Source: an uncultured Lentisphaerales bacterium
GTDB taxonomy: Bacteria > Verrucomicrobiota > Kiritimatiellia > RFP12 > JAAYLN01
Length of the DNA stretch: 64,000 bases
Reading direction: 5' to 3'
Assembly: GCA_964592855.1 (NCBI GenBank)
Contig: CAZQKI010000002.1
Coordinates: 4,356 to 68,355, forward strand
The notes under the pieces are model-generated. The model saw only the letters and a list, made by a program, of their open reading frames with translations, did no database searches and was not told where the DNA came from. A program made the position numbers and the translations under genes. The number at the start of each line of letters is the position of its first letter. Position 1 is the stretch's first letter. Shown here piece after piece: positions 1 to 45,791 of the stretch.

Positions 1-1330
1 GGCCGATCCCCTCGCGGGCAATTTCGAGATAGCGGTCGGTGCCGAGGTAGCGATAGAGCAGGACGGCCCCGCGCAGGTAGCACGCATCGCGCCCGACCGC
101 CAGGCGCGGCCAGCTGTTCTTCTCGGTCCAATGGGCGGTTTCAATCACGGCCCGCGCGGCGTCGATGAGATAGGGATCGCCCGTCTCCAGCCAGGCGCCG
201 ATCGAGGCGAGGATTCGCGCCATTGGCAGCGCGAAGGCGTTGGGCGGAAACCCGTGCATGCGCACTTGTTTGGCGGCGTGGTCGATGATGACATCGGTGA
301 AGAACCAGGCGGCCCGCATGGCGGTGTCGTACACCTGGGCATCGCCCGTCCGCCAGGCCTGGAGGAACAGCCCGTAGGGCGCCTCGCCCTCCCATCCCGG
401 CTCGGGGCGATCGGAGCCTTCCACATAGCTCAGCCCCCGCGGGATGTTGCCGTCTTCGAAGCCCCCCGCATGTGTGTATTGCTTGGCGAATGTCGCCACG
501 CCGTCCAACAGCCGGTCGTACGTGTTGGAAACGGGCAGCCAGGGTCCCGCCCAGAACTCCTCGCAGGCGCCGTACCACCAGGCGGGGGCCACGTACCGCG
601 CGAGACGCGGCGAGCGCACGGGATTCAAGCTGAAGCGGAAGCGGATGGTCCGGGCCATGCCGCGGAGAAAGCGGTGCTCCCGGGAGCGGAGGATGAAGGG
701 ATCGCGTTTCTCGGCGTGCAAGCGCATGCCGCTGTACAACTCGGCGCCTTCATACGGCTGCCACACCAGAAACCCGTCCTCGGCATCCATCCGGCCGGGC
801 TGGCCGGGGGTCGCCAGCGCCGACGCTTCCGAGGCGTCGAATGCCACCGGGCCGAAGTCGAACGCCTCGCGGCTTCCGTCCCAGAGGCCGAGTCCGTTGA
901 ACCCGGCCGGGTCGGCATCGCCGCACCGGAACCCGATGACCGGCACGACATCGTCGAAGGCGGCGCCGTCGTCGGAGAACTTGCTGTTGATGTGGTGGGC
1001 GAAGATTTCGCAGACGCCGTTGGCATGCAGGCGGGCGTAGATGTGGCCGTTGAGCCAGTTGTGCTTGTGCAGGTGGGGATTTGTGAAGCCCGGGTGCTCC
1101 CGGAAGCTTTCGGCGCCGTAGGCATCCACGGGGATCGCCCCGCCCATCTCGACGACGGTGCAGCCGGGGGTACGCTCCACAACGACCAGCCGGCACGCCT
1201 CCCACCAATGCACTCCGCCCTGGGTGCGCAGCCCCATGGCAATCTGCGCCGTGACGCCGCCCCAGGTGATCCCGAGCGCGTGCTGTTCCCAGACGAAAAA
1301 CGGATCCGGGCTGCGCCGGATCGGAAGCAT
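1..1330 (-). CDS. Partial CDS (C-terminus beyond window start), hypothetical protein, possibly a polysaccharide-degrading enzyme
   Basis: Manual translation of the minus strand (codon tops congruent to 1 mod 3) gives a continuous sensible protein (...GFEDGNIPRGLSYVEGSDRPEPGWEGEAPYGLFLQAWRTGDAQVYDTAMRAAWFFTDVIIDHAAKQVRMHGFPPNAFALPMARILASIGAWLETGDPYLIDAAR...) running off the window edge. It is absent from the ORF track because no in-window stop exists. Start is uncertain; candidate ATG at 1330 (MLPIRRSPDPFFVWEQ...). The overlapping listed ORFs 131..1681(+) and 750..1706(-) are low-complexity antisense artefacts. Confidence 0.5.
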   Translation of the reverse strand, partial: MLPIRRSPDPFFVWEQHALGITWGGVTAQIAMGLRTQGGVHWWEACRLVVVERTPGCTVVEMGGAIPVDAYGAESFREHPGFTNPHLHKHNWLNGHIYARLHANGVCEIFAHHINSKFSDDGAAFDDVVPVIGFRCGDADPAGFNGLGLWDGSREAFDFGPVAFDASEASALATPGQPGRMDAEDGFLVWQPYEGAELYSGMRLHAEKRDPFILRSREHRFLRGMARTIRFRFSLNPVRSPRLARYVAPAWWYGACEEFWAGPWLPVSNTYDRLLDGVATFAKQYTHAGGFEDGNIPRGLSYVEGSDRPEPGWEGEAPYGLFLQAWRTGDAQVYDTAMRAAWFFTDVIIDHAAKQVRMHGFPPNAFALPMARILASIGAWLETGDPYLIDAARAVIETAHWTEKNSWPRLAVGRDACYLRGAVLLYRYLGTDRYLEIAREGIG

Positions 1331-1838
1331 GCCGGCCTGCGGCGGCGGCGCGACGGCCGGGGCACCGTTGGCGGTCAGGCGGAGGCTGGCGGGGGCCTCG
1401 CCCGCGTTGTCGGCGATGATGAGCGCGCGGCGGGGATTGCCGGGCGCCGCACCGGGCCAGTTGCCCAGCTCCTGGTTGTAGCTGCTGCGATTCGCGACGC
1501 TGTGGGGGACGACCTGTCCGCCGCGCGGGATCGGCACCGAAAGCGAGACGAGCCCAGCCGGCCCCGCCTCGCCGAGACGCTTGAATTCCAGTTGAGTAAG
1601 TTGCTGCTGAAGATAGGAAGAAGCCACAGTCGCTCCGATCGGGTATGCAATTCGAGAACAGGCGCCAATAAGCGGAAATGATGGCTGAGCCGTGTGCCGG
1701 ATGCAAGGAGAATGTGCATGCGTTTGCCCCGCGTTTGCCCCGCCGAAACGAACGACTAGTCTTTCGTGCGTGTTTCTGCTAGGATGAAACCCAAAAATCG
1801 TGCCGGACTTAATCCGCTGCACGGAGGAGAAGGTACTG

Positions 1839-7094: not shown

Positions 7095-7190
7095 GGTTGA
7101 CTGATAACTTGACCCATACTTGACTTATCCAGATACCGGTCTTATTTTGCGCAAGCGCTTATCGCAAAATAACGGATTGCGTTATGTTGA
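7095..7190. promoter_or_regulatory. Divergent promoter region with three phased TTGAC boxes and a 17-bp palindrome ATAACGgattgCGTTAT
   Basis: TTGAC at 7097, 7109 and 7120 (11-12 bp phasing). Perfect inverted repeat ATAACG-N5-CGTTAT at 7169..7185, about 50 bp upstream of the rmlD-like start. The region is markedly AT-rich relative to flanks. Confidence 0.3.
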
Positions 7191-7231: not shown

Positions 7232-8143
7232 ATGACAAAGACAAAGCTGTTGATTACCGGTGCGACGGGGCTGCTGGGGCGGCCTCTCTTTCAATGCTGC
7301 CGTGCCGTCGATGACTGGCAGGTGACGGGGACGGCGTGGAGCCGGACCGGCCCCGGCCTGGAACGCATCGATCTGGCGGACACGGCGCGGCTGCCCGATT
7401 TTCTGCGCCGGATGTCGCCGCGGCTCATCATCCACTCCGCGGCGGAGCGCCGGCCGGACGTGAGCGAGAAGGATCCGGCTGGGACGCAGCGGCTGAATGT
7501 CGAAGCGACCGGGGTCATCGCGCAATGGGCCAAGGCCCACGGCGCGTTTCTGATCTACCTCTCCACGGACTACGTGTTCGACGGCACGAAGCCCCCGTAC
7601 CGTCACGACGACCCCACGCAGGCGATCAACGCCTATGGCCAGAGCAAGCTGGATGGCGAGCGGGCCATTTTGGCGGCCGGCGGTGCCGCGGCCGTGCTGC
7701 GCGTGCCGATTCTGTACGGTCCCTGCGAGAGCCTGGCCGAGTCGGCCGTCACGGTCCTGGCGCAGAACATGCTCGGTGCGCGCGCCGGGACTGGAACGCT
7801 CACGATGGAGCATTGGGCGACGCGCTACCCGACGCTGACGTCCGATCTGGCCGTCTTGCTGCGGCAGATGGCGGCGCGGCATCTCCGGGAGAACGACCTG
7901 GACGGCATCTACCATTGGAGCGGTGCGGAGCCCATGACCAAGTACGACATGGCGCTGGCGATGGGCCCGCAGCTTCGCTTCGATGTTGCGCGGCTCGTGG
8001 CCGACGCTCACCCGCCCGCGGGGGCGCCGCGGCCGAAGAACTGCCACCTCGACTCGGAGCGGCTGGAGCGGCTGGGCCTCGGACAGCGGACGCCCTTTGC
8101 CGTGGCGATCGCGCCGATTCTGGCGCAGTACGCGGGGGCGTAA
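7232..8143 (+). CDS. RmlD-like NAD(P)-dependent sugar reductase (dTDP-4-dehydrorhamnose reductase family)
   Basis: LLITGATGLLGRPL, IIHSAAERRPDV, YGQSKLDGE motifs of the RmlD substrate-binding-domain family. Confidence 0.7.
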   Translation: MTKTKLLITGATGLLGRPLFQCCRAVDDWQVTGTAWSRTGPGLERIDLADTARLPDFLRRMSPRLIIHSAAERRPDVSEKDPAGTQRLNVEATGVIAQWAKAHGAFLIYLSTDYVFDGTKPPYRHDDPTQAINAYGQSKLDGERAILAAGGAAAVLRVPILYGPCESLAESAVTVLAQNMLGARAGTGTLTMEHWATRYPTLTSDLAVLLRQMAARHLRENDLDGIYHWSGAEPMTKYDMALAMGPQLRFDVARLVADAHPPAGAPRPKNCHLDSERLERLGLGQRTPFAVAIAPILAQYAGA

Positions 8144-8203
8144 GCCCGTCGCTTGAAGCGGTCGAATCCCGCGCACGTGCGCGAAACCCACAAGGGAGAT
8201 CAG

Positions 8204-9190
8204 ATGGAAGCGAATGAACAGCTCAAGGTCCTGTTTCGCATCGCGAACGCCTTGGAGCGGATTGCCGCGGTCCTGGAGGGCAAGCGCCCGGCGGCGGCTG
8301 TCCCCGTCGTGACAACGCCCCCTCCGCCCCCGAAGCCCAGGCCCCCAAGGGCCACGGCGGTGCAGGCGCCGCCGGCACCACGTCCCGCGCCGGCCCCAGG
8401 CATGCCCCTCCCGCTGGTCCCGCGCATGACGAAAGCGCAAACGGCTGCAGCCGCCACCCTGGATGCATCCGCCCAGAGGGAACTCGTCGGCTATCTGCAG
8501 GCGTGCGGCTACAAGACGCAGGGACTGAAGTACAACGACGAATCGGAGACCTACAATCTGGCCAAGCAGATCTGGGCTTCGCGGACCATCTCGTTTCCCT
8601 TTCTGAAGTCGCTCCGCCACAATCTGGCCGACCGGGCCCGCTTCGCCTTTCCCTACAAGTCCTACGGCGACATGGACCGGGACCGGATGCGCTCGCTCTG
8701 CGACGTGCTGGGCAAGAAGGACATCATCGAGTATTACGAGGAGCCCGGGGCTTTTGTCGTGACGCCCAAGGTGGGCAATGCCAAGCAGCACTACATCACG
8801 GGCTTCTGGGGCGAGGAGATCGCGCTCTATCTGATCCGCAAGGTGATGACGGAGGTGTCGGCCCGGCAGAAGATGAAGTACAAGATCGTCCAGAATGTCG
8901 CGATGACCCGGCCGGGACCGGACGGCAAGTCCCAGTACCGCGCGGAGATCGACGCCGTGCTGCTGGTCAACCAGACCTTCTACTTCTTCGAAGTCAAAAC
9001 GGGCAACATTCTGAAGAAGTACGACGAGATGGCCCGTCTCCTGGCCGGCGAGCGGCACTTCTACATCATGTGCTGCATGGACCGTGCGAAGGGGCTCGAC
9101 AAGCTGCGCGAGACCAACCGGATCAAGGTGTTTCAACTGGATGCGCTGGAGCAGTCGTTGAAGACGCTCCTCGAATCGTCGCTGCGGTGA
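8204..9190 (+). CDS. Hypothetical protein with Pro-rich linker and C-terminal PD-(D/E)xK nuclease-like motif
   Basis: N-terminal helical segment (MEANEQLKVLFRIANALERIAAVLEG), Pro/Ala-rich linker (PPPPPKPRPPRATAVQAPPAPRPAPAP), C-terminal globular domain with WGEEIALYL ... EIDAVLLVNQ ... FYFFEVKTG (E...D...EVK arrangement). Start chosen at the second Met (MEANEQ). Confidence 0.55.
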   Translation: MEANEQLKVLFRIANALERIAAVLEGKRPAAAVPVVTTPPPPPKPRPPRATAVQAPPAPRPAPAPGMPLPLVPRMTKAQTAAAATLDASAQRELVGYLQACGYKTQGLKYNDESETYNLAKQIWASRTISFPFLKSLRHNLADRARFAFPYKSYGDMDRDRMRSLCDVLGKKDIIEYYEEPGAFVVTPKVGNAKQHYITGFWGEEIALYLIRKVMTEVSARQKMKYKIVQNVAMTRPGPDGKSQYRAEIDAVLLVNQTFYFFEVKTGNILKKYDEMARLLAGERHFYIMCCMDRAKGLDKLRETNRIKVFQLDALEQSLKTLLESSLR

Positions 9191-9261
9191 ACGCCGGGGT
9201 CACGTCAACTTCGTTGCCGCGCCGTTTGGAAGCCGAAAGGGCGCCATTATTCATCTCGCGC

Positions 9262-9358
9262 AAAGGGACGAAATGGACCCGGCGGTCCTCCGCCGTAGAG
9301 AAATGGAAGGTCGGGGCGGCTGCTCTTTTCGCCTACCGCCGGGGACGGCGGGGTCCAG
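9262..9358. repeat. REP-like element copy A (contains hairpin CGGCGGtcctCCGCCG)
   Basis: agggacgaaatggacccggcggtcctccgccgtagagaaatggaaggtcggggcggctgctcttttcgcctaccgccggggacggcggggtccag is near-identical to copy B 132 bp downstream; the core recurs at 45617. Confidence 0.7.
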
Positions 9359-9393
9359 TTCGTTCTATTTGCCGGAGGCCGAGGGGGCGGGTG

Positions 9394-9490
9394 CACAGGG
9401 ACGAAATGGACTCGGCGGTCCTCCGCCGTTGAGAATTGGAAGGTTGAGGCGGCTGCTCTTTTCGCCTGCCGCCGGGGACGGCGGGGTCCA
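9394..9490. repeat. REP-like element copy B
   Basis: About 90% identical direct repeat of copy A (ggactcggcggtcctccgccgttgagaattggaaggttgaggcggctgctcttttcgcctgccgccggggacggcggggtccag). Confidence 0.7.
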
Positions 9491-9705
9491 GTGCGGCTTC
9501 AGACGCCGAGTCGGGGGCACAATGAAGGGAGCCGTGGCAGGTTTGCGCCCCTTGTGCCTTGGGAGGCTATGCGCTTCATGGACAACGTCGGCATGCCTCT
9601 GCCGAATCTCGAGCATCCGACAAAGTTTGAGACAAAGCTCGCGACAAAGCTTCATGGGGGTAAACCAGACGGCCGGGGCGCAGATGCTCTGCAAGTCTCC
9701 TACTC

Positions 9706-9760
9706 GATCCAACTGGCCCGGCAAAGCCGGCCAGAGGCCGCACTGAATACTGAACCCTTG
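9706..9760. repeat. Second repeat module (hairpin CTGGCCCGGCAAAGCCGGCCAG + CACTGAA..CTGAACCCT)
   Basis: cgatccaactggcccggcaaagccggccagaggccgcactgaatactgaaccct matches gatccaactggcggccgccggccgccagaggccccactgaacgctgaaccct at 45653..45705. Confidence 0.65.
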
Positions 9761-9885
9761 CTACTCTGCGCGTCAACTATTTTTACGCGCACCCTGAACG
9801 CGGGCCGGCATTTTCCTCCGCTTGACTTTCGCGCAGATTCTGCGTACAACGGGGACGTTTGCACATTTTATTCGGAGGTTCCATC

Positions 9886-11844: not shown

Positions 11845-14094
11845 CTATCGGCCGCCGGCGAGCGTGCGGGCGAGGGTTTCGGCGGCCAGGCGGCGTCCGG
11901 CGTTGGTGAGCGTGCCGTCGACGACCGCGGGCGTCGCCTCGCGGGTGTGGCACATCGTGTAGAAATCGGCGACGGTGATGCCCAGGGCGTCGGCCACGCG
12001 GAGAACGGCTTCGGCGTAGGGGCGCATGGGGTCTTCGCCGGGATGTGTCGGGACCCGCATGTCGGCGGGCAGGAGGCCCGGCGGCGGCGTCATGAGAACC
12101 ACCTGGGCGGGCAGGGCGTCGCGGAGGAGGCCGGCGAGGGCGGCGAGTCGGCGCTCGAAGTCCTCCAGCGTTTCGCCTGCGGCGAGGCCGGGCATGTCGG
12201 GCGCGACCACGACGATGTCGGCGGGGTTCAGCCGGGCCAGCTGCGTCAGGGGCGCAAGACGGTCGAAGGTTCGCGTGGGAATGAATGCCTTGAGGGATTC
12301 AACGCTCTGCCTCCGGTAACGGATGGAATTGGCCGCGAGGCCGGGAATCTGCGCGCCGAATACCTGGATGTCGGAGAGGAACTGACGGTCAAACGCCAGA
12401 CCATTGTCCTCGCCGCCCAGTCCGGGCGGCGCCAGAAAGCCGTCGAGCAGGGTGATTTGCTGTCCGGGGCGAAGTCCGGTGAAGGGGGCCGGATGACCGC
12501 TGGAGGCGCGCCGCGGCATCAGCACGCAGGACGCCTCGCCCATGACCATGAAGCTGCCGTCGAGATCGTCGGGGAGGGCTTCGAAGGGTTGGCGGAGAAA
12601 GCGGATCGCCCCGTTGTTGACCGTGACGCCGGCATGGCTCACCGTCCAGCGGATGGAGGTGAAATCGTGGGCGGTGCCGACGGGGAGCACGAGGCGTGTC
12701 CATCCCTGCTGGAGGGTGACGACCTCGCGGTACATCTTCTCCACTCCCTCCGGCGTTGTCGTCCAGGCGGTCAGCGTCAAGGGCAGGGAATCGGGTGCCG
12801 TGCCGCGAAGGTGGATTTCGGGTTGGACGGGGTCGTCGTCGTAGCAGATGGCGGGGACGCCCTGCAGGCGCGTGGCCAGGCGGTATTCGTTGCCGATGGT
12901 GTCGGGAATCACAACCGTCAGGCGCGCGGTTTCGCAGGCCCCCGGCTTGTTCCGGACTTCCAGGTCAACGGGCAGGGCGCCGGTGTTGGTTGCGATGATG
13001 CGGCACCGGGGGGTTTCGCCCAGCGTGGCGCCCGCCTGTTTCCAAAGGCAGCTGACATCCTGCGCACCCTCCCAGGCGGCATGGATGCTGCGCAGCGAGA
13101 CGGGGGTGAAACGGGTCTCGTGGCCATAAAAGACGTAGCTGGGCTCCAAGGCGTAGTCGGCGCCCGCGTGCAGGGTGGCGCCGATGCGTTCGACGCGGGC
13201 GGCGACGGGATCGGCTCCGGTGAGCAGGGCCGCTTGCGGCAGCTCGACGATGGCGTCGGTTCCCGGCGGGATCCATCCCAGGTTAAGATTGATTTCGCGG
13301 TCGCAGAGCGTCAGCACGGTGTAGTCGAGGATGCCGGCGCGGAGTGGAATCGGATCGCTCGGCATCCAATCGTCGTCCTTGCGCGAACGCGAGCCGACCT
13401 GGAAGACCAGCTTGTCCTGAAGCAGGAGATAGACGGGTTTGCGGCTTTTGACGGCGAATCGGAATTCGCCGGACGCGGGGATCAGCATCTTGCCCGAGAG
13501 TTTGGCCACGTAGACGGGACGCCGCCAGCCGCCCTGGTACCAATTGCGCGGGCCCTGCTCGTTGCTGACGACGGGGATGAAGCCCTCCAGCGGAAACTGC
13601 ACCGGCTGCCGCCCCGGGCGCGTGGACATAAAGCGCATCTCCTCCCAAGTGGGGGGAGCTTCGTTGGCACCCGCCCGCTGGATTGAGACGGAGACCGGCT
13701 GCGGATCGACGAAGGGGCAATCGGGTGCAAGGGGCGTCGTGTTGGTGATGGCATAGAGCGCGACGACCGCCTGCGGCGCCAGACCCTCGCAATTGACCAG
13801 CACGCTCACGGCACCGGCATTGGTCGCGGCCACGCGCAGACTGCGGGGCGATGCCCCATGATAGGCGGCGACGCGGGAGATCTGGCCATCGACGACGGAT
13901 CCCGCGGGAATTTCGACCAGGGCAAGACGCTGATTCGCGGGAGCCTGGAAGACCACCCGCACGGGTGCATCGGCATGCTGCCACGGCGGATCCGGGGCTT
14001 GCGCCTGAACCGTCCCGGCGAAGGCCAGCGACACCGCCAGGAGCAGGTGCTGCCGGCCGTTTACTGATAAAAGATGGCGGATTCCGTGTTCCAT
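11845..14094 (-). CDS. Secreted multidomain protein with C-terminal SGNH/GDSL-like hydrolase domain
   Basis: Signal-peptide-like N-terminus (MEHGIRHLLSVNGRQHLLLAVSLAFAGTVQAQA). The C-terminal ~200 aa (DIVVVAPDMPGLAAGETLEDFERRLAALAGLL...ADFYT) resemble SGNH esterases. The N-terminal 39 codons of the listed ORF were excluded. Confidence 0.55.
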   Translation of the reverse strand: MEHGIRHLLSVNGRQHLLLAVSLAFAGTVQAQAPDPPWQHADAPVRVVFQAPANQRLALVEIPAGSVVDGQISRVAAYHGASPRSLRVAATNAGAVSVLVNCEGLAPQAVVALYAITNTTPLAPDCPFVDPQPVSVSIQRAGANEAPPTWEEMRFMSTRPGRQPVQFPLEGFIPVVSNEQGPRNWYQGGWRRPVYVAKLSGKMLIPASGEFRFAVKSRKPVYLLLQDKLVFQVGSRSRKDDDWMPSDPIPLRAGILDYTVLTLCDREINLNLGWIPPGTDAIVELPQAALLTGADPVAARVERIGATLHAGADYALEPSYVFYGHETRFTPVSLRSIHAAWEGAQDVSCLWKQAGATLGETPRCRIIATNTGALPVDLEVRNKPGACETARLTVVIPDTIGNEYRLATRLQGVPAICYDDDPVQPEIHLRGTAPDSLPLTLTAWTTTPEGVEKMYREVVTLQQGWTRLVLPVGTAHDFTSIRWTVSHAGVTVNNGAIRFLRQPFEALPDDLDGSFMVMGEASCVLMPRRASSGHPAPFTGLRPGQQITLLDGFLAPPGLGGEDNGLAFDRQFLSDIQVFGAQIPGLAANSIRYRRQSVESLKAFIPTRTFDRLAPLTQLARLNPADIVVVAPDMPGLAAGETLEDFERRLAALAGLLRDALPAQVVLMTPPPGLLPADMRVPTHPGEDPMRPYAEAVLRVADALGITVADFYTMCHTREATPAVVDGTLTNAGRRLAAETLARTLAGGR

Positions 14095-14291
14095 TACCTG
14101 TCTACTCGAGAATGCGGTCTTGTGAACAGAGCTTCTTGCGTTTCGACCATTTCCATGCTCAAACTCAGTCTGATGCCCGGTGAGCCGCATTATTTGCGGC
14201 GCGGGCGGCACCGTGCCGGACGGTGCTCCAATTCAACTGCCGTCGCATTTGCTCCCGCGTTCTGGCACGCTTTGTGCGTTTATTATCCCGC

Positions 14292-22213: not shown

Positions 22214-22262
22214 GTAATCAGTAATCAGTCATCAGTAATCAGTGATCAGTAATCGGTGATCA
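22214..22262. repeat. Tandem heptanucleotide repeat (GTNATCA)x7
   Basis: gtaatca gtaatca gtcatca gtaatca gtgatca gtaatcg gtgatca read directly, 10 nt after the pilB stop. Confidence 0.9.
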
Positions 22263-22337
22263 GTGGGACAAGTTAGTTTCTCGCAAAGGCGCAAAGGCCG
22301 CAAAGGGTTTCAACCTTGACGTCTTTGGGTAACGTTC

Positions 22338-45001: not shown

Positions 45002-45284
45002 GGCAGTTCTCTAAAAAGATGTGGGTAAGCGGGACTCGATCCCCGACCTCTGGTTGATTTCTGAAGCAGTGGTGAAAATGGCTTTCAAGCTGATGAAAAC
45101 GGCATCTAGCTACTCTGTTCGAGCGACCGTGAGCAGGGGTTTGCCGAGCCAAGCGAACAGGTGAATTTTATCAATTTATCACTTCGCTGGCAAGGATGCG
45201 ACAGGATACAATTGACCTTGAACGGTCCGATACGTCCCGCTCCACCGCTCGCGCCCGGATCGATGCGTCCGCACAAGCTTCGGC

Positions 45285-45530
45285 GGACGCTTACGGCGAC
45301 GCTTACGGTCGACGACAAGACGGTGCTTCTCGTAATCCGTAAGCGTCGCCGAACGCGTCATCCGGGTCCCACGGCAGTTACCCGATTCTTTGTCTCGATC
45401 TTTGTCTCGATCTTCGTCGATCTGAAGCTATGTCCCGATCCTCGTCCCGATCTTTGTCGGTCGACAATGATCGGAACAAGGATCAAGACAAGGATCAGGA
45501 CAACGATCCGGAGCCCCGATACTGACCGAG
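45285..45530. repeat. Repeat-rich leader region upstream of hisD (direct and inverted repeats)
   Basis: gacgcttacgg x2 with inverted copy ccgtaagcgtcgcc (45290..45355). ctttgtctcgat x2 plus gtcccgatc repeats, mirrored by gatcaagacaaggatcaggacaa (45385..45510). Confidence 0.6.
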
Positions 45531-45598
45531 AAAGGGCCGAACGACGGTGTACAGGGTAGGCTCGCAAGCTCGCCCCCATGACGCCGGAGCGTTATCCG

Positions 45599-45720
45599 TC
45601 TCGCGCAAAGGTGATCTGGACTCGGCGGTCCTCCGCCGTAGAGAAATCCCACTTGATCCAACTGGCGGCCGCCGGCCGCCAGAGGCCCCACTGAACGCTG
45701 AACCCTGTCCCCTGAACCCT
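45599..45720. repeat. REP-like composite element (same family as 9262..9760)
   Basis: cgcgcaaagg...ggactcggcggtcctccgccgtagagaaat followed by gatccaactggcggccgccggccgccagaggccccactgaacgctgaaccct. Both modules adjacent here, separated by ~300 bp at the first locus. Confidence 0.7.
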
Positions 45721-45791
45721 CGGTGCACGGCAACGCAGTTGACGCGCATCCGATGGATGCGGGCCCGGTCGGGTGGTGCGCCGCACGCCGA

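Follow-up and report, generated by a model that had tools for sequence, protein, structure and literature searches.

Can2 and Card1 are textbook nucleases that are switched on by cyclic oligoadenylate (cOA) via a fused CARF domain. They form the CARF4 group together with VC1899 and Cdn1 (Card1_endonuc, PF09002, formerly DUF1887), are associated with type III CRISPR-Cas systems or a cOA-producing Cas10, and act as homodimers whose active sites point into a central substrate channel. In Can2 and VC1899, the nuclease core is preceded by an extra motif of four helices flanking two antiparallel strands, and E276 and D278 have been published as active-site residues of SthCan2 (PMC7969007). The equivalent Glu and Asp of TbrCan2 coordinate two catalytic Mn2+ ions, and in SthCan2 and Card1 the ECK motif takes part in binding the metal (PMC10783487). 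Stand-alone nucleases are also known in defence, for example ZwsA, a NERD-type RNA-phage defence nuclease with an E/D/ExK active site, and NERD proteins are frequent in defence islands (bioRxiv 10.64898/2026.04.06.716636).

The present study deals with a gene for a protein of 328 amino acids located in a 64-kb window, i.e. the whole stretch of DNA that was analysed. Sequence and model comparisons assign its product as a nuclease module of the Can2/Card1/VC1899 type without a CARF domain. The gene and its ribosome-binding region are as follows:

8192..8199, + strand: Shine-Dalgarno-like AAGGGAGA, 4 nt upstream of the ATG, read from the sequence and kept in the relative L162
8204..9190, + strand: coding sequence of the nuclease, 328 aa, stop codon included, supported by the ORF list, GC3, dN/dS and the exact protein on metagenome/MAG contigs

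The longest ORF at the locus covers 8153..9190 (+), a longer reading that would be TTG-initiated. In the related strain L162, AAGGGAGA and the ATG are unchanged although the surrounding bases diverge, and 8 of the 17 residues encoded upstream of the ATG differ, versus 3% divergence within the protein. Hence, the ATG at 8204 is the true start, in agreement with the initial annotation, whose quoted strings were likewise all found in the translation (WGEEIALYL at 202-210, DAVLLVNQ at 250-257, FYFFEVKTG at 259-267 and the Pro-rich stretch at 39-65). The GC3 of 0.86 equals that of the neighbouring genes and the base composition is indistinguishable from host genes. Moreover, several independent metagenome or MAG contigs encode an identical or near-identical protein, in each case behind the same RmlD-like gene. 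The comparison with the 97%-identical L162 copy gave a dN/dS of 0.10 overall, 0.19 for residues 1-86 (helix and linker) and 0.06 for residues 87-328 (the domain), at a whole-gene dS of 0.19. The low ratio in the domain at this level of synonymous divergence demonstrates that the gene is real and under strong purifying selection.

The protein can be divided into four parts:

8210..8281, + strand: N-terminal amphipathic helix, residues 3-26 (AF2 pLDDT 83-94; helix also aligned in A2 and A4; comparable N-termini in remote clusters)
8282..8461, + strand: disordered Pro/Ala-rich linker, residues 27-86 (pLDDT, composition, variability, dN/dS 0.19)
8462..8773, + strand: helical/beta-hairpin sub-domain, residues 87-190 (AF2 secondary structure with pLDDT >85; PADLOC and VC1899 profile alignments)
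8774..9187, + strand: PD-(D/E)xK nuclease core, residues 191-328

The helical N-terminal segment, which had already been noticed in the sequence, shows a heptad-like a/d pattern (L7, L10, A14, L17, A21, L24) and turned out to be conserved throughout the family rather than incidental. The Pro-rich linker described between this helix and the domain is also present; it consists of 32% Pro and 23% Ala, is predicted to be disordered with a pLDDT below 50 in the AF2 model for residues 29-85, and differs in length and sequence from homologue to homologue. The profile alignment of the following sub-domain region covers residues 194-311 of VC1899, and in the model, residues 87-190 correspond to the extra motif of Can2 and VC1899.

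The structure prediction that had been proposed as a check yielded a PD-(D/E)xK nuclease fold. AF2 reached a pLDDT of only 40 from the single sequence; the model used here was calculated with an alignment of 50 family sequences and has a mean pLDDT of 83.6 and a pTM of 0.72, with values >90 over residues 90-328. The confidently modelled C-terminal domain of about 240 residues displays the alpha/beta core typical of this fold (alpha-beta-beta-beta-alpha-beta). When the model was compared to the PDB with Foldseek, the top 16 matches were exclusively VC1899, Cdn1 or Can2 (E 8.6e-12 to 1.5e-6), and MspJI, Bax1, SduA, Can1 and AF1548 appeared only from E ~4e-4. The structural comparison gave the following scores:

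SthCan2: 15.3 (199 aligned residues)
TbrCan2: 13.9
Cdn1: 13.7
VC1899: 13.0
Can1: 10.5
Card1: 9.7
Type II restriction endonucleases (next group): 8.1 or lower

Profile comparisons point in the same direction. The family profile matches Can2 (7BDV, E=3.3e-8), VC1899 (2.7e-6) and Cdn1 (6e-4). The PADLOC model CARF4--CARF_PDDEXK matches the target with E 4e-8, aligning residues 87-273 to positions 132-308 of the 364 in the profile, a stretch that lies wholly behind the CARF part; it also matches 25 of the 50 family members. Pfam Card1_endonuc recognizes 8 of the 50 and Pfam NERD 22 of the 50 (E<0.01), while no match to Pfam CARF was found among family members. The target itself scores 21.6 bits against NERD (E=3.3e-4, residues 200-272), where the Pfam gathering threshold is 22.1. 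Single-sequence searches of the PDB with the target returned no real match, and the fold search of BFVD gave weak generic nuclease matches only. A 'hypothetical protein' without Pfam match above threshold has thereby received a specific, structure-supported assignment.

The alignment to SthCan2 (7BDV) allowed the active-site codons to be located:

8813..8815, + strand: codon of E204 in the GGWAE helix, equivalent to SthCan2 E243, invariant in the family
8945..8953, + strand: codons of E248-I249-D250 (the 'EID' strand), matching E276 and D278 of the SthCan2 active site
8990..8998, + strand: codons of E263-V264-K265 (the ExK strand), equivalent to SthCan2 E291-C292-K293

In this alignment, E204 corresponds to E243, E248 to E276, D250 to D278, E263 to E291 and K265 to K293. 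The initial annotation had proposed an E...D...EVK triad and had suggested to check its conservation in homologues. The triad is real: in the alignment of 50 family sequences (18-30% identity), E204 does not vary, and W202, D250, Y260, E263, K265 and G267 each reach a conservation of 90% or more. Beyond this triad, E248 of the 'EID' motif adds an acidic residue that matches E276 of Can2. The elements that characterize PD-(D/E)xK enzymes, namely acidic residue(s) on beta-2, a (D/E)xK on beta-3 and a helix glutamate, are thus all present and conserved in homologues, and the active site is complete, with nothing that looks degenerate.

Relatives were searched exhaustively using phmmer with residues 75-328 as query against 1.84 billion cluster representatives. 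This search found 52 proteins at E<=1e-3, 24 of them at E<=1e-10, which share 22-35% identity with the target and in most cases measure 270-370 aa. This is a rare family of divergent proteins. No relative was detected when 185,579 species-representative genomes were scanned with the target as query; tblastn found nothing in the plasmid collection, its matches in the phage collection were insignificant and due to chance (E=0.4), and IMG/VR contigs scanned with the main sub-family contained no match either. Word-indexed protein searches with the full length, the C-terminal part or the family alignment returned essentially the query alone, as a word index cannot cope with the low-complexity linker and with relatives as divergent as these. 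All members share the architecture of N-terminal helix, variable linker, helical sub-domain and nuclease core. In most of them the N-terminal region is a longer, heptad-patterned stretch of 40-100 residues, and linkers rich in Pro, Ala and Lys are confined to the small sub-group of the target (P0009, P0021, P0022). The N-terminal helix bears the motif RIAxALExI/L in this sub-group and LE[YF]Axx(L)LE in the main sub-family, and the motif recurs in clusters whose nuclease domains share no more than about 20% identity. Literature searches turned up no account of such an architecture or of its occurrence within restriction-modification (R-M) loci.

The genomic surroundings of homologues, which had been suggested as a further check, were analysed with the main sub-family. 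An alignment of the full set of 50 proved too divergent to search for loci, and scanning metagenomes with the sub-group of the target gave no match. The scan with the main sub-family, which is only 20-27% identical to the target, yielded 72 loci, in which ORFs were called, neighbours clustered and recurrent clusters annotated with Pfam. At about 25 of the 44 informative loci (at least 3 kb), defence-type genes adjoin the homologue (Type I R-M, Mrr, Fic, AAA_21, TIR, RT, RhuM), an association that is strong yet unquantified, as the loci include several near-duplicates and many neighbouring ORFs lack an annotation. Among them are Type I R-M operons in which the homologue lies between hsdS and hsdR (L136, L142-L145, L150, L151 and L154), often trailed by Fic, a Y1-transposase-like protein, AAA_21 or RhuM. 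An Mrr_cat plus Zn-ribbon endonuclease directly adjoins the homologue at 7 loci, and Fic lies beside it at about 9; other defence-type neighbours in the main sub-family are TIR/SEFIR, a 980-aa RT and a KAP-like NTPase. Some loci are not obviously related to defence, with FGE-sulfatase (by Pfam) or desulfoferrodoxin/FeoB-like and HemN-like proteins (by sequence inspection) as neighbours. Within the target's own sub-group, P0022 directly follows genes for a C5 DNA methylase and an HNH endonuclease, which form their own pair. A 189-aa double-wHTH protein is encoded near P0009 and P0022, the two copies being 52% identical; it was rejected as a conserved partner, since no homologue occurs in the window. 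Genes for cas, CARF, SAVED, Cas10 or CD-NTase proteins were found neither beside the target nor among the annotated recurrent neighbour clusters.

The target's own surroundings include the following features:

7232..8143, + strand: gene of an RmlD-like reductase, upstream and co-oriented (Pfam RmlD_sub_bind 5e-62), the same neighbour on all contigs carrying the nuclease gene
9260-9362 and 9393-9495, no strand assigned: two copies of a 103-nt imperfectly palindromic unit, 92% identical, 3' of the nuclease stop codon

The neighbourhood scan covered 20 surrounding proteins from about 8 kb upstream to about 13 kb downstream. Upstream are genes for an acetyl-CoA carboxylase carboxyltransferase, OadA (an oxaloacetate-decarboxylase-type carboxylase), CinA (identified from the precomputed Pfam assignment on identical Logan contigs), a GalE-like epimerase and the RmlD-like reductase; downstream follow a xylose-isomerase-like TIM barrel, a Gfo/Idh/MocA oxidoreductase, prepilin, secretin, PilM, T2SSE, YidC, MreB and PBP2. 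This is a housekeeping neighbourhood, and the initial observation that a recognisable partner gene such as a methylase or an ATPase is lacking nearby was borne out for all scanned neighbours. No methyltransferase was found in the scanned ~8 kb upstream and ~13 kb downstream, no integrase or transposase near the nuclease gene, and no R-M, CRISPR or other defence gene, CRISPR-like array or tRNA in the window; Rfam gave no match in the nuclease region or the whole window. The family as a whole is associated with defence islands, but the target gene stands alone among housekeeping genes. The sole promoter-like site (7120-7148) precedes the RmlD-like gene and none is seen in the 60-nt gap before the nuclease gene; hence, both genes probably form one transcription unit. 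A functional link between the reductase and the nuclease is not evident. In a genome scan, the best matches of the rmlD-like neighbour were Kiritimatiellia MAGs with 62-63% identity. The fetched Kiritimatiellia loci carrying this gene contain no homologue of the nuclease, and an insertion-site comparison was not possible because synteny is not conserved.

The palindromic units belong to what had been called a REP-like repeat island. Such an island does exist directly downstream of the gene; it is small, with two adjacent copies only, and evidence for dispersal is lacking in the window, since no further copy of the unit occurs elsewhere in the 64 kb. Assemblies break inside copy 1 (9260-9362), which hints at further genomic copies. 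In L162, the repeat region is absent or rearranged, and the intergenic region is strain-variable and partly inverted. The repeats possibly represent a terminator or a MITE/REP-like element, and they have no demonstrated part in the function of the nuclease.

Regarding function, we lean towards an active, metal-dependent endonuclease of the Can2/Card1/VC1899 type that lacks the CARF domain and would act as a stand-alone or accessory enzyme, most likely against phages or other mobile genetic elements and outside the control of cyclic oligoadenylate. The position of the CARF domain is taken by the conserved amphipathic helix of about 25 residues on a disordered Pro-rich tether of about 60 residues. 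By analogy to Can2 and Card1, the protein is probably homodimeric, and the N-terminal helix, which is a longer coiled coil in most relatives, may supply or regulate the oligomerisation, as its conservation and heptad spacing suggest. The substrates of the enzyme are probably DNA and/or single-stranded RNA, which it would nick or degrade without much regard to sequence. Its role would most likely be defence against phages or other mobile elements, independent of cyclic oligoadenylate, and in the present genome the gene would be a lone copy that shares its transcript with a sugar-nucleotide gene of unrelated function. The suggestion of the initial annotation that a stand-alone nuclease, possibly of defence, is encoded here has gained support from the genomic context of the homologues (about 25 of 44 loci). 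The housekeeping neighbourhood of the target, without a defence gene in the window, counts against a defence role, as does the fact that most of the contextual evidence stems from the main sub-family with its 20-27% identity to the target.

This neighbourhood would also suit a housekeeping nuclease in DNA repair, recombination or RNA processing without any defence role, analogous to enzymes of the EndoMS/NucS, Hjc or RecU type. The probable co-transcription with the RmlD-like gene, the native GC3, the strong purifying selection and the presence at the same locus in every strain or contig seen are consistent with such a role. However, homologues are extremely scarce and scattered (52 clusters in 1.84 billion representatives, 0 of 185,579 species-representative genomes with the target query), and the closest Kiritimatiellia genomes possess the rmlD-like gene without a homologue in the fetched loci. 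Moreover, the best structural relatives are defence effectors rather than repair enzymes, and the relatives sit in R-M and defence islands, which together make a pure housekeeping function unlikely. The mobility suggested by the very different contexts of family members leads to another explanation, in which a mobile element or a decayed defence island left the gene behind or brought it along as cargo, for example as an orphaned toxin-like nuclease or one delivered with the palindromic repeats, and is kept selfishly or addictively. It would account for a solo copy without partner, for the palindromic repeats and the strain-variable, partly inverted intergenic region immediately downstream, and for the assembly breaks in the repeat. 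Nevertheless, we regard it as rather improbable: base composition and GC3 match the host genes, no integrase, transposase or tRNA is found nearby, the plasmid collection gave no match, the phage collection only chance matches (E=0.4) and IMG/VR none (scanned with the main sub-family), and the dN/dS of 0.06 indicates a function in current use.

Two other possibilities concern the activity of the protein and its control. Inactive PD-(D/E)xK relatives typically lose active-site residues. The initial annotation had allowed for an inactive fold relative, and the target could be a catalytically inactive or purely nucleic-acid-binding protein serving as regulator or scaffold; the helical, wHTH-like sub-domain could bind DNA, and the close structural relative VC1899 is inactive in vitro (PMC7969007). 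This is very unlikely, as the target has all five residues E204, E248, D250, E263 and K265, which its family conserves as well, and the domain evolves with a dN/dS of 0.06. Similarly low is the probability that the protein is still a cyclic-nucleotide-controlled effector whose sensor acts in trans, i.e. a separate CARF or SAVED protein docking on the N-terminal helix. The conservation of the helix motif across very divergent members would fit such a sensor in trans, as would the listing of the CARF-less PD_DExK of PADLOC, matched by 6 of the 50 members, among CRISPR-linked genes; yet, CARF, SAVED, Cas10 and CD-NTase genes are lacking beside the target and among the annotated recurrent neighbour clusters, and the window contains no CRISPR array.

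The reading as a CARF-less nuclease with a probable defence role can be extended to the family in a more tentative manner. It is conceivable that the target and its about 50 relatives form an undescribed defence-nuclease family, which originated from the Can2/Card1 module, became uncoupled from cOA signalling and uses the helix or coiled coil in place of CARF for another type of control, be it oligomerisation, autoinhibition or partner docking. Its members would be repeatedly placed between hsdS and hsdR or paired with Mrr or Fic, and the Kiritimatiellia-type copy might be a domesticated solo version. The family keeps the full nuclease module and the active site while the sensor is gone, and it occurs within R-M and other defence loci. 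Since an unregulated non-specific nuclease would be toxic, a control mechanism is needed, and this raises the question of how a potentially toxic enzyme of this kind is controlled without the known switch. It might also be asked whether effector modules of CRISPR signalling now serve as defence genes in their own right. The members of this small family are compact (about 290-330 aa) and easy to express, which makes the question directly testable. The main advance over the initial annotation is the assignment to a specific nuclease family.

Several known systems have the PD-(D/E)xK core in common with the target, among them Shedu (SduA) and type II/IV restriction endonucleases such as NgoMIV, PfoI, MspJI and Mrr. 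Shedu follows a similar general logic of a nuclease joined to a variable N-terminal regulatory part; the SduA models in PADLOC did not match the target and Foldseek reached SduA only with E 2e-3 and a TM of 0.21. The adjacent cognate methyltransferase that defines a type II R-M system is lacking at the target. The NERD (PF08378) nucleases show the same E...D...ExK arrangement in their PD-(D/E)xK core. However, ZwsA is a large multidomain protein (VHS, DUF647, NERD, S4), whereas the target family is small and carries the Can2-type extra sub-domain. The idea of a CARF-less Can2-type nuclease is not unprecedented, because PADLOC already catalogues such a version of the same module as PDLC01131 ('PD_DExK, same family as the one fused to CARF (PDB 1XMX)'). 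This model matches 6 of the 50 family members (best E 4e-7) and not the target itself at E<=1e-3; it stems from censuses of CRISPR-linked genes, whereas the present family occurs in R-M, Mrr and Fic contexts and the target in a housekeeping context.

The closest resemblance is to Can2 and Card1, with which the target shares both the nuclease domain and the extra helical/beta-hairpin motif at an identity of 11-20%, so that a single-sequence phmmer search with the target reaches neither of them. Their N-terminal, cA4-binding CARF domain with its Rossmann-like fold is absent from the target, which has only the 26-residue helix and the disordered linker, and thus possesses neither a cA4 binding site nor the allosteric activation relay of Can2. 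Type III CRISPR-Cas or Cas10 loci, with which Can2 and Card1 are associated, were not found beside the target, judged by the 20 scanned neighbours and the lack of a CRISPR-like array in the 64-kb window. The target was modelled as a monomer. Because the CARF domain is missing, the target is not a member of the Can2/Card1 group; by analogy, it very probably works like the nuclease half of these enzymes.

The intergenic region 3' of the nuclease gene is inverted or rearranged between the strain studied here and the related strain L162: about 35 nt past the end of the nuclease gene, the L162 sequence matches window positions ~9663-9775 in reverse complement (compared stretches: window 9225-9775 and L162 1505-1651). 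Upstream, the two sequences share 90% nucleotide identity. The L162 contig reaches only ~146 nt past the stop codon. A 27-nt block, GCAAGTCTCCTACTCGATCCAACTGGC, shows no differences between window and L162 despite a dS of 0.19 in the adjoining gene, and the hairpin beside it has been kept with a changed sequence (CTGGCCCGGCAAAGCCGGCCAG versus CTGGCGGCCTCTGGCCGCCAG in the same comparison). This could be either a small RNA or a regulatory element that can be inverted.

A 103-nt unit is found downstream of the nuclease gene in two neighbouring copies (window 9260-9495; 92% identical, spacing 133), each an imperfect palindrome of ~95 nt. The predicted folding of copy 1 (-58.9 kcal/mol, z = -3.0) is far stronger than that of copy 2 (z = -0.35). 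Further copies were not found elsewhere in the 64-kb window, and the unit has no match in Rfam. Four short-read contigs with the nuclease gene break off within copy 1, which hints at additional copies elsewhere in the genome.

Other repeats and large reading frames in the window are the following:

45277-45512, three distinct short tandem arrays, each repeating every 12 nt, units GCTTACGGCGAC, TCTTTGTCTCGA and GACAAGGATCAG
22214-22264, separate 7-nt array, GTAATCA x7
11845-14211, minus strand, 788-aa ORF with host-like GC3
131-1681, plus strand, 516-aa ORF with host-like GC3

The 12-nt-period arrays sit in an apparent 570-nt gap separating long ORFs (45152-45723), and the GTAATCA array lies directly past the T2SSE-like gene. 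At E<=1e-5, neither ORF matched any family in Pfam. The 788-aa ORF has the prepilin/secretin cluster on one side and the Gfo/Idh/MocA oxidoreductase gene on the other.

Both members of the target's own small sub-group with available context have a gene for a double-wHTH protein close to the nuclease homologue:

L086, 1575-2165, minus strand
L089, 5418-5987, plus strand

These proteins (189-196 aa, 52% identical to each other) contain two MarR/TrmB/ArsR-like wHTH domains, and no counterpart was detected within the 64-kb window.

In five metagenome loci of the main sub-family (L145, L150, L151, L152, L154), the nuclease homologue is located within a Type I R-M operon. Directly after it, at a distance of 5-52 nt, comes a conserved protein of 430-570 aa, and RhuM is often next in order. 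The nuclease homologue and this protein, with or without RhuM, could form a conserved two- or three-gene cassette between hsdS and hsdR. The 430-570-aa protein itself weakly matches the IS200-like Y1 transposase (E 6e-4, under the Pfam cut-off).
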